Assembly: GCA_964517885.1 (NCBI GenBank)
Contig: CAZFCT010000001.1
Coordinates: 1 to 27,163 of the forward strand
Direction: 5' to 3'
DNA length: 27,163 nt
DNA from: Candidatus Woesearchaeota archaeon
GTDB lineage: Archaea; Nanobdellota; Nanobdellia; Pacearchaeales; GW2011-AR1
The stretch's first letter is position 1. Every line of letters starts with the position of its first letter. Shown here in pieces: positions 15,306 to 27,163 of the stretch. The notes under the pieces were generated by a model. That model saw only the letters and a list, made by a program, of their open reading frames with translations. It did no database searches and was not told where the DNA came from. The translations under genes were made by a program, and so were the position numbers.

Positions 15306-15860
15306 ATGATAACTTATAATGATATTTATGAAGCGTCTAGAAAAGAGAGATATTCTGACCAACTTCAACCTTTACCGAAGAATTTTATTACAGAAGTTTC
15401 TGATTATCTTAAAGAGAAAAAGGAAATTGCGTCGAAGGATAATGATGTTTTTTCTGATGTTATTGTAAAAACAAAGAAACAATTAGAGAATGCGATTACG
15501 TTGTTTAAAGAATTAATTTTAAGAAGAAAGAAAAAGATTTTGAATTTGGTTTTAATTGCTGCTGAGACTGGGATTTCTAAACAGGATTTTGATAATATGC
15601 TTGCTTTTGAAAAATTGTTGTTTGATGATTTAATGAAAGCGATTGATATTTCTGAAAAAAAACTGGGGAATTTACTTAATGGTGAAAAAGATGAAAAGAA
15701 AAATGAACTTATTGTTTTTAAGGAAAATGTTGAAGAATTTATGGGATTAAATGGGGAGAAAATGGGTCCTTTTGAAAAAGGGCAAATTGCAAATCTTCCT
15801 AGAGAAATTGTGAAAATTTTAGTCGAAAGTGGGAAAGCAGATAAAGTTGAAGGGGAATAA
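15306..15860 (+). CDS. DNA replication complex GINS family protein (Gins51-like)
   Basis: ERYSDQLQPLPKNFITEV, LILRRKKKILNL helical A domain, and C-terminal B domain GEKMGPFEKGQIANLPREIVKILVESGKA. ATG 15306 preferred over the track's GTG at 15288. Confidence 0.85.
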   Translation: MITYNDIYEASRKERYSDQLQPLPKNFITEVSDYLKEKKEIASKDNDVFSDVIVKTKKQLENAITLFKELILRRKKKILNLVLIAAETGISKQDFDNMLAFEKLLFDDLMKAIDISEKKLGNLLNGEKDEKKNELIVFKENVEEFMGLNGEKMGPFEKGQIANLPREIVKILVESGKADKVEGE

Positions 15861-15964
15861 TTTTATAACTTTCTTTTATTTATCTTAATTATGAAAACTT
15901 CACAATTAATTACAGGAATTATTTGAAAGTGGAAAAGCAGAAAAGGTGGAAGGGGAATAATTTT
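15825..15964 (+). repeat. 40-bp imperfect direct repeat of the GINS 3' end (15825-15864 and 15925-15964)
   Basis: gaaagtgggaaagcagataaagttgaaggggaataatttt vs gaaagtggaaaagcagaaaaggtggaaggggaataatttt: 36/40 identical, 100 bp apart. Confidence 0.93.
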
Positions 15965-15984: not shown

Positions 15985-16135
15985 AAAAGCCTGTAGAGGG
16001 ATTTTACTCGCACCCGTAAAAATTGCAATAAACATTTTCGGCATTTTTGCAAACGCTCGCCCCCGACGAAATCCTTCTGATTTAAGCGAGTTCAAATCTT
16101 ACAAATATAATTTCACTTCGTTCAATTATATGAGA
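15985..16135 (-). repeat. tRNA-Thr-associated structured mini-element (copy A), ending in a 20-bp duplicate of the tRNA 3' end
   Basis: aaaagcctgtagagggattt at 15985-16004 equals 16136-16155. Core 16006-16059 is 46/54 identical to 18005-18058. Hairpin at 16105-16131. Confidence 0.88.
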
Positions 16136-16138
16136 AAA

Positions 16139-16210
16139 AGCCTGTAGAGGGATTTGAACCCCCGACCTCCGGTTTACAAAACCGATGCTCTGCCACTGAG
16201 CTATACAGGC
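16139..16210 (-). tRNA. trnT: tRNA-Thr(UGU)
   Basis: Cloverleaf GCCTGTA/TACAGGC, D arm GCTC/GAGC, anticodon loop TT-TGT-AA, T loop TTCAAAT, U73 discriminator (archaeal Thr type), no encoded CCA. Confidence 0.97.
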
Positions 16211-16226
16211 ATAATTATTTGATAGA

Positions 16227-16248
16227 ATTAATGGTTTAAAAGATTTCT
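16227..16248 (-). promoter_or_regulatory. BRE/TATA promoter of tRNA-Thr, exact 22-bp copy 1
   Basis: Minus strand AGAAATCTTTTAAACCATTAAT, ending 16 nt upstream of the tRNA. Identical to 16492-16513. Confidence 0.75.
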
Positions 16249-16250
16249 TA

Positions 16251-16478
16251 TTATAACTTCTCTATAAATTGTTGGGCTTCTTCGAAAAGTCTTTCCCTAT
16301 AAATTTCATCTAAGTTAACATGTTTCAAGTATAGGGTAGCAACATCACTTTCAAATAAATTTTTTAATTCCCCCACATGTTCTTCGTAATATTTTTTCAT
16401 AAATTCGGAGGTTACTCTCTCTTTTGGAATTTTTAATCTCTTAGCTATTGCTTCAGTAAGAAATTCATTTAGGTTCAT
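16251..16478 (-). CDS. Hypothetical 75-aa protein, cassette between two identical promoter copies
   Basis: Intact ORF with ATG 13 nt downstream of the promoter repeat (leaderless spacing). No recognisable motif. Confidence 0.6.
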   Translation of the reverse strand: MNLNEFLTEAIAKRLKIPKERVTSEFMKKYYEEHVGELKNLFESDVATLYLKHVNLDEIYRERLFEEAQQFIEKL

Positions 16479-16491
16479 TTTAATATTAATT

Positions 16492-16513
16492 ATTAATGGT
16501 TTAAAAGATTTCT
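16492..16513 (-). promoter_or_regulatory. BRE/TATA promoter, exact 22-bp copy 2 (drives the 75-aa ORF)
   Basis: attaatggtttaaaagatttct, identical to 16227-16248. Confidence 0.72.
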
Positions 16514-16523
16514 GATAATTTAA

Positions 16524-17057
16524 TTATTTCTTTTTTGCGTCTAAGATTCTTATCTCACAGAGGGCGAGAGGATAAATCTTTTTGAGTTTTATACTTAATT
16601 TTTTCTGTAACTGATTTTGTAAAATTTCTGAGAAAAGTTCTTCTGCGTTTTTTGTTTTAACATATTCTAAAAGTTCTTTTTTTGCTTCGTTTCTCAAAGC
16701 TTTTCTAACTGCTCTTGAAACTTTTCTTCTTGTAACTAAGAAAGGTTTTATTTTCAAATAAGCATCTTTACATTCTGTATCAAAAGAATCTTCGACATAA
16801 TTTGTTCCTTTTCGAACCATTCTTCTAATAAAATAAGGCATTACTTCGAGTTTTTTTGGTATTGTTGTTGCTTTTTTGTCTTCAACTTTTACATTTAATG
16901 TAAGCATAACACTTTTTCCTTTCAAGGCCCTTGTTAAATCATATTTCATAAATCTATTATTGAGTTCTTCGATTTCGTAAGCTTGCATTTGTGTTTCTTT
17001 TCCAATTATTGGAATTTCCACTTCAAAAAATTTCTTTTTTCTTTTTGCTTGTGCCAT
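16524..17057 (-). CDS. rps3ae: 30S ribosomal protein eS1 (S3Ae)
   Basis: YFIRRMVRKGTNYVEDSF, KIKPFLVTRRKVSRAVRKALR and KKIYPLALCEIR. Confidence 0.93.
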   Translation of the reverse strand: MAQAKRKKKFFEVEIPIIGKETQMQAYEIEELNNRFMKYDLTRALKGKSVMLTLNVKVEDKKATTIPKKLEVMPYFIRRMVRKGTNYVEDSFDTECKDAYLKIKPFLVTRRKVSRAVRKALRNEAKKELLEYVKTKNAEELFSEILQNQLQKKLSIKLKKIYPLALCEIRILDAKKK

Positions 17058-17990: not shown

Positions 17991-18112
17991 AATGGTCCCA
18001 CGTAACTCGCGCCCGCAAAAATTGCATTAAAAATTTCTGGCATTCTTACAAACGCTCGGAATCGGACATCCGATTTTAGAATATTATTTCAGCTTCATTT
18101 CATTCAACTGAA
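17991..18112 (-). repeat. tRNA-Val-associated structured mini-element (copy B), ending in a 12-bp duplicate of the tRNA 3' end
   Basis: aatggtcccacg at 17991-18002 equals 18113-18124. Core 18005-18058 is homologous to 16006-16059. Hairpin at 18087-18113. Confidence 0.88.
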
Positions 18113-18114
18113 AA

Positions 18115-18186
18115 TGGTCCCACGCAGAATCGGACTGCGATCTTGTCCACGTCAAGGACACGTCTTAGCCATTGGACTATGGGACC
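18115..18186 (-). tRNA. trnV: tRNA-Val(GAC)
   Basis: Acceptor GGTCCCA/TGGGACC, anticodon stem TGTCC/GGACA, loop TT-GAC-GT, T stem CGCAG/CTGCG with atypical loop TCCGATT, A73. Confidence 0.92.
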
Positions 18187-20344: not shown

Positions 20345-23300
20345 TAAAAAAAATGAAACTTTTCGGATTTCTTTTTTTATTTGGAATTTTATTTTTGGGT
20401 TTTGTTTCTGCTTGGACAAGTTCAACTCCTCAATTGAGTCAGTATGGGATTTCTACATCAAGTAATATTGAAACTTCTTGTGGAGAAGGAACAGATTTTA
20501 TTGTTCAAATTGAACCTTTTGGTTGCACGCCTGCAGTTGTGAGACAAGATTTGATTGAGGAAAATGATGTTCCTGTTTTTTGTAAACTTGCTGTTACAAA
20601 AGTAAATCCTCTTGTTAATATTAATTTTATAGATAGTGTTTCAATTACAGGAGAATTATCTCCTTATGTTTCAGGAGTTGCATTTTACCCTGCGAGAGCT
20701 GCTTTAGATACAGATACACAATTAACTTCATCTGTTTTAGAGAATATTGGTTATGTTGTTATTAATTTAAAGAAACAAGAGAATGTTTCTGCTTTAGAAA
20801 ATTGTCGTGACGCTTCTTTTTTGGGTTTTCCTGTTGGAGAATTTTGTGTTATCGAAGGTAATTTAACAGCATATTTGGAATACGATGTTAATGAAGCGCT
20901 GGGTTTTGGTAATGCTGTTTTTTATATTCCAGAACTTGATGAAGAGGAATGGGAAATAAACAAAGATTTATATCAATTCTGGGGAAGAAGAGGTTATTTA
21001 AAAATAGATTCTGTTGATGTGGATGAGGCAACGATTTCTTTGTATGGAGATAATAAAAAAATTTCAGGTGTGACTTTGAAAAAAGGAGAAACCTCAGATA
21101 TAATTCCTGTTCCAAATATTGCGTGTGGTGCGGGTGTAAGATTAAAACTTGTTGATGTTGAAAATCCAGATACAAGAGCGCAACTTAGTATAAGTGGGGA
21201 AATTATTGAAGTTGGTGTTGGAGAGAAATTTTTGGATAATAAATGTGTTGTGAGAGAAATTGATAAAAAAGGTTTTTCACACTTGGTTAAAATAAAATGT
21301 ACTGAAGATGATAAGACAAACACTTTTGATTTGAGAGTTAGTCCTAAATTATCATTAAATATTAATGGAGTTGAAAGTGAAGTTGGTATTGGTGATTTTT
21401 TATACAACGACGGTGAAAATGCAATTTATCTTGGTTATGCTGGAACAAAATATAATTCTAATAAAATAGATGATTTGTTTATCTATTTTGTTTCAATGCC
21501 AAAATCTGTTGGAACTAAACTTAGTGAAAGTGATTTGTCTTCTATTGATTTTGTTGTTGGAGATTTAATTGAATCAAAACAAGAGGGCAGCGGTATTATT
21601 GATTCTGTTTCTGATGCTCTGAAGGGAATTGCTGGTGCAAGTAATAGATTATCTAGGCTTCTTGCGTATAAACAAAAATTATTTAGAATAGATTTTGGAG
21701 ATTCTAAAAATGTTTTTGGAACAGATGTTTTCATAGTTAATTATGCGGGTTCTGTTGATGGAGAATTATTTTCTGATTATGAAGAACATTATGAAAAAGC
21801 AATGACTTCTTATGATGAAATAATCAATAAGTATTCTTCAGAGATATATTTTGGAGATTTCAGTTATGGTGAGGAAGCTTTATCTTCAGAAATTGAACTT
21901 GCATATTTTGTTAATCAAAAAAGAGTTGCTGCTGAATTGTGCGAGCAGTTTAAAATTAATTATCCTGATGCGCTTATTCCTGTTCCTTGTAGATTAGTTT
22001 ACAAACTTTCAAGTGATAATTCTGATATGACTTCTGTTTTAATAAATAAAAAAATAAAAACAATTTCTTTGGAAGGAATTTATGAACCTACTTTTGAGGA
22101 ATATGGTGTTAGTGTTACTGTCTTAGATAAATTTGGAAAGATTCATTCTTACAATTTAATAAAAGATAAAGTGGTTTATTTACAGAATGATGGGGGAGAT
22201 TATTTGCAGTTGATTTCTGCTACAGAAAATTCTGCGAAGATAAAAACGAGTATAAGCACCGCAGGTGTGATGGACGCAATTAAAAAAGAATTTGGTTCTG
22301 ATACTATTACCATTGAAAAAGATATTCCTAAAGATTTTGCAGATTCTTCTATCACTTTAAATGAAATTAATTTGAAAAAAGTTGCGAAAGTTTCTTTGAC
22401 TTCAAATATTAACGACGCTGGAACAAAAGCGAATTTTAGTTTTCAGATTGGAATTGAGAAGAGAGCGATTAGTTTATCGACGAATCAAATTGAAAATATT
22501 ATTGAAGATTTGAATGATACAATTGAGAGTTTTGAAGAAATTTCAGACAATTTGGGAATTGTCGTCGATGGATTACAAAAAACTTGTCTTGCTACTGGAG
22601 CAATTTTAGTTACGAAAAATTTTATTTCTGGACTTGGTGGCGCAGGTATTGCAAGACAATATGTTATGAGGGGAGCAGAAGGTTGGTTTGAGAAATGTGC
22701 TGGTTTAGTTGATAATGATGAATATATTTCAATAGATAAATGTCTTTCTGATAATTCTGAACAAATTAATAAAGATGTTGAATCAATGACAAAAATAGTT
22801 GATGAGCAAAATAAAAAAATAAAAGAATTACAAGAGCAATCTTCTACAACGCAATTTTTATTGGAACAAGTTGTAAATGATGATTCTTTTATGAAAGGTT
22901 ATTCTGAACAAGTTAATAATAAAGTTTCTCAGAATTTGGATATTCCTGATGTAATTACAGACCCTTCTGGAAAAGGAGATTCAATTAATAAAGAAGATAT
23001 TTTGCAAATTCTTGATTATTCTGGTTGGGAAAATAATTATTATTCTGTTGAGGATTTAAGAAATATTGAACTTTATTCTGCAGTTTTGAATGATAATTCC
23101 GCAAGTAGTGAACTTAAGAAAATTGCTTACTCTGAACTTTATTCTGAACTTTCTGATATAAAATCTAATTCAAATTATTATTTAGAAAGACAAACAATTT
23201 CAAGTTCATTAAATAATGTTAATCCGTCGCAAATTAATTCTTTGTCTTCTGGAGAGAGAACAACTAAATTAGAATATCAAGGATTGACTGTTACAAATCT

Positions 23301-26979: not shown

Positions 26980-27048
26980 AAATAATTCTAAAACTTTTTA
27001 TAGGCATAATCAATTATATTTTATATTCATAATTTATATTTTTATTAT

Positions 27049-27132
27049 GCGGAATTGCCGGAGTGGTCAAACGGGACAGACTCAAAATCTGTTGGCTCAG
27101 TGCCTACAAAGGTTCGAATCCTTTATTCCGCA
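27049..27132 (+). tRNA. trnL: tRNA-Leu(CAA)
   Basis: GCGGAAT/ATTCCGC acceptor, anticodon arm ACAGA-CT-CAA-AA-TCTGT, long variable arm, AAAGG-TTCGAAT-CCTTT, A73. Confidence 0.97.
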
Positions 27133-27163
27133 TTTCTAGAAATAAATAACTCGGGATAACCTT

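Follow-up and report, generated by a model that had tools for sequence, protein, structure and literature searches.

Short folded inserts behind tRNA genes point to a family of gene-less miniature mobile elements in DPANN archaea

We analysed a stretch of 27,163 nt (henceforth the window) from a Candidatus Woesearchaeota genome and found, behind its tRNA-Thr gene, a short insert in which a folded core is accompanied by segments that match this same tRNA. The reading that we favour, with moderate confidence, is that of a gene-less miniature mobile element of ~100–150 nt that landed in the T-arm of tRNA-Thr, with a second copy in tRNA-Val, and whose tRNA-matching segments were copied from, or corrected against, the target. 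Such elements apparently form an undescribed family of miniature mobile elements in DPANN archaea.

Results

Two tRNA genes of the window are followed by inserts of the same layout

The genome of the window (G000) is 0.5 Mb in size and 82% complete, and has many tRNA introns; these introns, the genome size and the archaeal translation genes are in line with DPANN. Segment coordinates are read on the minus strand, which is the strand of the tRNAs; on this reading, all the positions that a first-pass annotation had given for the Thr and Val segments were correct. The features at tRNA-Thr are as follows.

16139–16210, minus strand: tRNA-Thr(UGU), the intact target gene (ARAGORN; Rfam tRNA, 73 bits)
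16136–16155, minus strand: Z1, the working tRNA's copy of the repeat, from T-loop position 57 to the tRNA-Thr 3′ end plus TTT (exact 20-nt match to 15985–16004)
16105–16131, minus strand: hairpin within the inserted spacer, with an AT stem and a loop rich in purines (tandem G.A, 2 bp, GAA triloop; evidence: sequence)
16090–16098, minus strand: A, GATTTGAAC, antisense of the T-loop (complement of positions 53–61; exact complement of the 9-mer at 16151–16159)
16060–16067, minus strand: X′, GTCGGGGG, 8-nt sense copy of tRNA-Thr positions ~46–53 (T-stem 5′ strand), directly 5′ of the core (equals tRNA-Thr 16159–16166)
16005–16059, minus strand: type-1 core, Thr copy, a hairpin whose closing helix contains tandem G.A pairs (85% identity to the Val copy)
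15985–16004, minus strand: Z2, second copy of the tRNA-Thr 3′ end, displaced to a position directly 3′ of the core (exact 20-nt match to 16136–16155)
15985–16135, minus strand: the whole polymorphic insertion unit at tRNA-Thr, 151 nt (empty-site contig)

The Thr unit is composed of the spacer, the antisense block, X′, the core and one 20-nt repeat. Owing to the repeat, its placement is ambiguous (15985–16135 or, equally, 16005–16155). The sense segment GTCGGGGG occurs at only two places in the window (16060–16067 and 16159–16166), against 0.05 expected. The antisense segment GATTTGAAC is found at two places only as well, a count that is weak on its own because 0.5 occurrences are expected. A chance origin of the tRNA-matching segments is unlikely. 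The hairpin with the purine-rich loop recurs 3′ of several other G000 tRNAs, and is missing from the empty-site contig described below.

The second copy has the following features.

18115–18186, minus strand: tRNA-Val(GAC), the intact target gene (ARAGORN; Rfam tRNA)
18087–18113, minus strand: hairpin of the Val copy, with the conserved loop rich in purines (evidence: sequence)
18069–18075, minus strand: A of the Val copy, AATCGGA, complementary to the T-loop over 7 nt; it forms a hairpin with X′
18059–18067, minus strand: X′ of the Val copy, GTCCGATTC, 9-nt sense copy of the T-loop region (equals 18127–18135)
18003–18058, minus strand: type-1 core, Val copy (85% identity to the Thr core)
17991–18002, minus strand: Z2 of the Val copy, a 12-nt repeat of the 3′ acceptor strand with TT (identical to 18113–18124)

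After each of the two tRNAs the order is the same: a T-run, the purine-loop hairpin, A, X′ (7–9 nt), the core (54–56 nt) and Z2, which reproduces the tRNA from the break point to 2–3 nt beyond its 3′ end. The layout can be written as gene [X-t-Z1], spacer, (antisense T-loop block A), X′, folded core, Z2. Both tRNA-Val genes of the genome (window 18115–18186 and G000:C9:1882–1952) have the T-loop UCCGAUU, in which position 55 is C and not the near-universal U; this makes pseudouridine-55 impossible in either of them.

The Thr unit is present or absent in nature

Contigs from four public metagenome runs were aligned to the window region. A contig of run X4, which belongs to the same study as the run that covers the region best, joins 15984 directly to 16136 and skips 151 nt. 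At the joint 20 nt fit both sides, and there is no mismatch over 116 nt on the tRNA-Thr side. The 151-nt block is a natural present/absent polymorphism with exact boundaries. The run index samples 31-letter words from metagenome contigs, and the word length of the assembler exceeds 20 nt. We do not read the joint as an assembly collapse because the 20-nt repeat is shorter than both of these lengths. The empty-site contig could represent a deletion between the 20-nt repeats and not the ancestral state. For the Val copy, exact-pattern scans of the JGI metagenomes and IMG/VR gave no match to an empty site.

Relatives of the same genus have both empty and filled loci at tRNA-Thr(UGU). The neighbouring gene lies 2–12 nt downstream, with no element, in four genomes (G005, G002, G013 and G008). 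The spacer of G014, 51 nt long, includes a hairpin but neither the core nor the tail repeat. The locus of G009 is filled by a sister element with the second type of core described below, which has its own 18-nt repeat.

The convergent protein gene on the plus strand has undergone a similar change. Its last 46 nt (15819–15864) are repeated 100 nt downstream (15919–15964) with 87% identity, and the differences between the duplicates fall mostly at third codon positions. The run with the best coverage has a second joint here, from 15848 to 15949, at which 100 nt are skipped and 16 nt fit both sides. The region 15819–15964 is thus a second polymorphic gene-end duplication, without a recognisable core.

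We also observed that window positions 16227–16513, where a 75-aa open reading frame lies, are missing from the contigs that a wastewater run yielded for a related organism; the joints run from 16211 to 16705 and from 16252 to 16647. This is consistent with the first-pass annotation of the reading frame as an inserted cassette.

The inserts contain a displaced, interrupted copy of their target

Together, X′ on the left and Z2 on the right make up a second copy of the target, displaced and interrupted. In all four core copies of G000, the match of the downstream flank to upstream sequence exceeded that obtained in 100 shuffles. The third strong copy lies just past the stop codon of the aIF2-beta gene on contig C21; when its core is removed, X′ plus Z2 encode, in frame, the final 11 codons of the gene, and the only differences from the working copy are at third codon positions and in the stop codon. 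The same layout recurs in a weaker fourth copy, 3′ of tRNA-Leu(UAA). The duplicated part can also be the beginning of a gene. In genome G149, a core antisense to tRNA-Glu has the anticodon loop as its target and the 5′ half of tRNA-Glu is duplicated, and at G000:C22, where the element has the opposite orientation, the duplicate comprises the 5′ end of tRNA-Ile and the promoter region. The antisense block is absent at the aIF2-beta gene end and from the G149 anticodon-loop copy.

In every case the repeat starts where the element is inserted and ends slightly beyond the outer limit of the functional gene, and an intact gene copy is left. The length of the repeat, 12–36 nt, depends on the distance to the gene end. 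Both Z2 and A decay: the spare target copies carry point differences and are therefore not maintained. At least seven tRNA genes of G000 bear inserts of this kind.

These results bear on the first-pass annotation, which had proposed a programmed, tRNA-targeting insertion system. Insertion at tRNA genes is supported by the empty site and by the empty and filled loci of relatives; the sense segments are duplicated target, and a guide role for them is wrong. The annotation had also placed the core where the tRNA has TTC. This holds at tRNA-Thr, where TTC is lost at the break; at tRNA-Val the lost bases are TG, in the T-stem, and in other copies none are missing.

Flank duplication is seen in only 7–8 of the 30 type-1 copies, and core and duplication may therefore arise in separate steps. 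The copies without duplication lie in conserved intergenic scaffolds or antisense within canonical tRNA introns. The cores are modules that enter many contexts, and in tRNA exons they occur only together with a compensating duplication.

Two further loci of G000 contain displaced tRNA ends. At window positions 27048–27163 and beyond, tRNA-Leu(CAA) is followed by a scaffold gap and then by a second copy of the T-arm and 3′ end, probably another element of the family that broke the assembly. On contig C3, a 12-nt fragment identical to the tRNA-Glu 3′ end lies 3′ of tRNA-Ser(GCU) at 23186. This fragment may be the trace of a rearrangement between element copies at different tRNAs.

Covariation supports a strand-specific fold of the type-1 core

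The search model R1 matches type-1 cores in 17 of the 151 genomes of the family. We assessed covariation in an alignment of 41 distinct type-1 cores from 18 genomes, specifying nine Watson-Crick or wobble pairs, seven of which lie outside the search model. The fold is 96.4% paired and eight of the nine pairs show compensatory changes. None of 500 shuffles reached its covariation score, and controls in which the pairing partner was slid were 14–62% paired. The closing helix consists of C-G, G.A, A.G, G-C, C-G, R-Y and A-U; the inner helix is capped by a second tandem G.A, and the tandem G.A pairs are conserved. Many of the pairs are U.G, and therefore only the tRNA-sense strand folds. The single-sequence folding energy is not better than that of shuffles (z = +1.2 for Thr and −1.6 for Val). 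The evidence for the strand-specific fold of the type-1 core is its covariation. The tandem-G.A motif is common to the type-1 core, the post-tRNA hairpins and the second hairpin of core 2.

We compared the fold with known RNA classes. Rfam 15 covariance models detected tRNAs only, in the window and in six element loci. A K-turn was rejected, as the tandem G.A pairs come without the 3-nt bulge, and for a hammerhead or other ribozyme there was no motif by eye and no Rfam match. In an H/ACA-like guide on the plus strand, the arms would be the complement of the duplicated target; the fold is on the other strand, and the K-turn/ACA geometry is lacking. A bulge-helix-bulge (BHB) intron or a trans-splicing leader was rejected too, because the 4-bp central helix of the h-B-H-B-h motif cannot form at the core borders or between the T-loop and the antisense block.

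The first-pass annotation had considered that the segments might act as an antisense switch of tRNA 3′ maturation. In a broader form of this idea, the insert is a functional RNA: a trailer co-transcribed with the tRNA, whose copies regulate 3′ maturation or yield a processed small RNA. Most copies do lie downstream of a tRNA on the same strand, the core fold is strand-specific with U.G pairs, and in a read-through transcript pairing between the block and the T-loop would be possible. However, the unit is dispensable in the population, it also occurs at a protein gene end and antisense to tRNAs, its duplicated tails decay, and no BHB motif or known RNA family was found in it. We consider a functional RNA very improbable, and the switch itself fits poorly with non-tRNA targets, copies in the opposite orientation and presence/absence polymorphism.

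Across the whole GTDB, the exact pattern of core 1 had one match only, in a Burkholderia genome, which we take as chance. Exact-pattern scans of IMG/VR and the JGI metagenomes yielded no further copies.

A second core type is inserted at T-loop positions 56/57

Core 2 was first found by scanning downstream of all G000 tRNAs. The elements of this type in G000 are listed here.

C4:24561–24610: core-2 element
C2:39648–39696: core-2 element
C20:961–1008: core-2 element
C22:6613–6657: core-2 element

They are located behind tRNA-Arg(CCU), tRNA-Ile(UAU) and tRNA-Tyr and, in antisense, before tRNA-Ile(GAU). The core-2 covariance model has matches in 13 of the 151 family genomes, and one of the carriers, G084, has 11 near-identical core-2 copies at 11 different tRNAs.

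The insertion point of core 2 is always between T-loop positions 56 and 57, and the duplicated stretch comprises positions 57–73 (+0–3 nt). We scored 16 copies by script, of which 13 had a measurable repeat. The repeat starts exactly at position 57, 17–18 nt before the called tRNA end, in 12 of the 13; the remaining one is blurred by a mismatch and was scored from 7 nt further in. The exact repeat ends 0–3 nt beyond the tRNA in ten copies and 19 nt beyond it in one, and is shortened by a mismatch in two. The antisense block, 3–8 nt before the core, is the complement of positions 52–61, that is, of 5 nt on each side of the break. Some inserts comprise two or three hairpin modules in tandem.

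The antisense block follows the local tRNA

We compared the fit of each antisense block to its own T-loop with the fit to reassigned T-loops. For 21 tRNA-linked copies from nine genomes, none of 5000 permutations reached the observed fit. The flanking segments thus match the adjacent tRNA and not other tRNAs, as the first-pass annotation had supposed.

The annotation's further suggestion, of programming by a guide, is not borne out for the antisense segment in G084. Six copies in this genome have a first hairpin, half of the core, that is identical at 38 out of 38 positions, and yet they carry two different antisense blocks, fitted to the local tRNA in five of the six. The block is therefore not inherited with the scaffold as a guide; it must either be copied from the target when the element inserts or be corrected against it later. 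Correction could proceed, we infer, by template switching within the inverted repeat that the block forms with the T-loop.

A related alternative, which we regard as unlikely, is that the block, as RNA or ssDNA, genuinely guides insertion: it would pair across the cut site, direct a recombinase and be reset to the new target after each jump. Its symmetry is as expected, since the block always complements positions 52–61, 5 nt on either side of 56/57; it tracks the adjacent tRNA in the permutations above; and the core could be its conserved, strand-specific scaffold. Two or three antisense blocks are also one base off the local T-loop and fit another tRNA better, as after a jump with a tolerated mismatch, and a carried-over guide therefore stays as a minority reading. 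This alternative is opposed by the different blocks on the identical cores of G084, and by the lack of a block at the aIF2-beta and G149 anticodon-loop copies. Moreover, the enzymes of known guided systems were not found where they were searched for (TnpB and Y1 in G000 and G084, IS110 in five other carrier genomes).

Cores occur inside canonical tRNA introns

In two genomes, introns at the canonical position consist largely of antisense cores. In G094 (C3, ~109870–110120; locus L028) the intron belongs to tRNA-Asp and is 175 nt long; in G154 (C28; L084) it belongs to a class II tRNA, which we read as Ser(UGA), and is 65 nt long. There is also a resemblance between the first hairpin of core 2 and the beginning of the G000 tRNA-Glu(UUC) intron. 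How archaeal tRNA introns arrive is an open question according to a 2026 preprint (doi 10.64898/2026.10.13.758758), and the presence of the same cores in canonical tRNA introns bears on the route of their arrival. If it is true that landings in the anticodon loop become introns, this route would be concrete and observable.

Search for the mobilising enzyme

We searched for genes that could mobilise the elements. The Y1 transposase (PF01797) was not found in G000, G084, G108 or G003, and is present in G106 and G118. Neither reverse transcriptase (RT) nor TnpB was found in G000 or G084. The IS110 DEDD transposase (PF01548) was not found in five carrier genomes other than G000, which are 77–88% complete. 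Cas1 (PF01867) was not found in G000, and was found in one of five carrier genomes. G000 has two Phage_integrase tyrosine recombinase genes, both on contigs other than that of the window, and Xer-like recombinases occur in most carrier genomes. In five genomes, no core lies within 1.5 kb of any integrase. A link of the cores to integrase, Cas1 or Y1 genes was rejected, as no core is near any of them.

Two mechanisms that depend on RT were also rejected. Retroposition from tRNA transcripts would account for a repeat that ends at the tRNA 3′ end, but no RT was found in G000 or G084. In the case of a template repeat of a diversity-generating retroelement (DGR), the differences between copies are not adenine-specific and no RT was found in G000.

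G106 has a tandem-G.A hairpin with the stem GTTGC at C22 ~16070–16120 (L126), ~60 nt past an IS200-like Y1 transposase pseudogene. Its loop is of the same type as that of the post-tRNA hairpins, and it is a possible lead to the mobilising enzyme.

G000 does contain an ordinary integrated island, of ~6.6 kb, at tRNA-Asp (contig C2, 43–6718). A gene for a 406-aa tyrosine integrase, one of the two recombinases of this genome, starts 48 nt past the tRNA, a 13-nt direct repeat of the tRNA 3′ end (att) marks the far border, and there is no core. A further solo tRNA-tail fragment was observed on contig C34.

Tyrosine recombinases suggest another explanation, in which the inserts are att scars or attP-only mini-circles of a host Xer, virus or plasmid enzyme, with X′-core-Z2 as attR and the tRNA as attL. 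The enzyme would recombine the T-arm with a tRNA-end copy that the element carries and that contains the core, after the model of an intron-bearing attP copy of a tRNA (PMC3293823). Reportedly, the classification of Williams (2002) has a T-loop sublocation class of tRNA att sites, and an identity block from the T-loop to the tRNA end, as in known sites of this class, is what we observe. The genuine 6.6-kb island at tRNA-Asp of G000, with its integrase and att repeat, and the Xer-like recombinases of most carrier genomes point the same way, as do the third-position differences of the 100-nt gene-end duplicate, which look as if it had been brought from a relative. However, a new element-borne 17-nt tail would be needed for each target, and yet G084 has near-identical cores at 11 tRNAs. 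No integrase is near any core, the island at tRNA-Asp is without one, and the core interrupts the supposed att site and does not flank it. We therefore regard an origin as att scars as rather doubtful.

Discussion

A possible insertion mechanism

We return to the gene-less mobile element as the preferred reading. Its folded core, as ssDNA or RNA, would be recognised by a putative enzyme acting in trans. The tRNA-matching segments would be copied from the target at insertion or corrected later, and no heritable programmable guide would be involved; the antisense block may be a mechanistic footprint of the insertion reaction or help in its pairing step. Survival would be limited to insertions in which the duplicated target extends to the end of an essential, single-copy gene. 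Z would thus appear "tailored" to the gene end because only those insertions that regenerate the essential gene persist. Landings in the anticodon loop may remain as spliceable introns or parts of them.

A bolder variant seems improbable to us. In this variant, a folded DNA or RNA module that encodes no protein would move by an undescribed reaction: it would pair with the T-loop through a rewritable block, the gene would be broken at 56/57 and its tail copied, which lets the host survive, and landings in the anticodon loop would give new introns.

Comparison with known systems

We compared the elements to systems that insert at or near tRNA genes, and to short structured repeats and introns. 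Casposons are inserted at the 3′ ends of tRNA and translation-factor (aEF-2) genes, with a target duplication that preserves the gene, and the elements are alike in inserting at gene 3′ ends with a gene-preserving duplication. However, casposons have Cas1, long terminal inverted repeats (TIRs) and a fixed target-site duplication (TSD) of 14–15 bp, whereas no Cas1 was found in G000, the elements have no long TIRs and their repeat is variable.

Miniature hairpin repeats include MITEs, the Rickettsia palindromic elements, REP/REPIN sequences with RAYT, and Correia elements. Like these, the elements are short, gene-less, structured and multi-copy, patchy among relatives and polymorphic for presence and absence. 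MITEs are defined by terminal inverted repeats, a fixed short TSD and an autonomous IS. The elements differ in all three respects (no tested transposase family was found in G000), and their only inverted repeat involves target-derived bases.

The IS110/IS1111 bridge RNA, the guide nucleotides of IS200/IS605 and the omega-RNA of TnpB likewise place a structured non-coding scaffold beside target-matched sequence, and on the element side the antisense block resembles them in spanning the insertion point symmetrically. These systems make no long target duplication, whereas the elements do, and their blocks vary among identical scaffolds. IS200/IS605, PATE and REP-RAYT insert 3′ of a fixed tetra- or pentanucleotide and do not duplicate the target. 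Here, in contrast, there is a duplication, and no Y1 was found in G000.

A group I intron has a catalytic core, P3–P9, of at least ~200 nt, whereas the unit is 151 nt long and had no Rfam intron match at E values up to 1–5. The introns of archaeal tRNAs with a BHB motif and the split tRNA genes (PMC4033280, PMC3218864, PMC3293823) are similar in that they too involve short conserved sequences at varied positions of various tRNAs. The same cores are found in canonical introns of related genomes, and tRNA fragments occur beside disrupted tRNA genes (PMC3218864), as they adjoin tRNA genes here. BHB introns interrupt genes that are otherwise complete, whereas the interrupted copy in the window is a 3′ fragment that lacks the 5′ part of the tRNA and lies behind an intact gene. 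Inspection of the core borders in the window found no BHB; with a 3′ fragment behind an intact gene and no BHB that can be drawn, the insert in the window is therefore not an intron.

A further comparison is with the tRNA-targeting integrative elements of tyrosine integrases (SSV and pNOB8 types in archaea; PMC3293823). Duplication of att by such integrases has been described, as has an attP tRNA copy that carries an intron (PMC3293823). In those elements, as in the inserts described here, a direct repeat begins in the T-loop and extends to the 3′ end of the tRNA or just past it. The tRNA remains intact, a spare tail decays downstream, and the tRNA-fragment copy can contain an intervening sequence. 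A border repeat with a reconstituted tRNA is found here in exact form (20 nt for Thr and 12 nt for Val). However, integrative elements carry or adjoin an integrase, whereas the elements here are 100–150 nt long, with no gene and no integrase nearby. The attR identity block of integrative elements is uninterrupted, whereas here the second copy is split by a 54-nt core 7–9 nt from its left edge. Also distinctive are the inverted T-loop copy and the occurrence of cores at the ends of protein genes, within introns and in ordinary intergenic DNA. In the literature on tRNA-targeting integrases, disrupted tRNA genes and tRNA introns, we found no gene-less unit of 100–150 nt of this kind.

By creating spare tRNA tails and dispersed repeats, the units give rise to broken assemblies and misled tRNA annotation in DPANN genomes. 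An element with a covariation-supported fold that writes a direct and an inverted copy of its target is of wider interest, and its enzyme could reveal a new chemistry of site-specific insertion. The tRNA genes are classic landing pads of mobile DNA. Their known users are kilobase-sized and have an integrase, whereas the units described here are 100–150 nt long, gene-less and still polymorphic.
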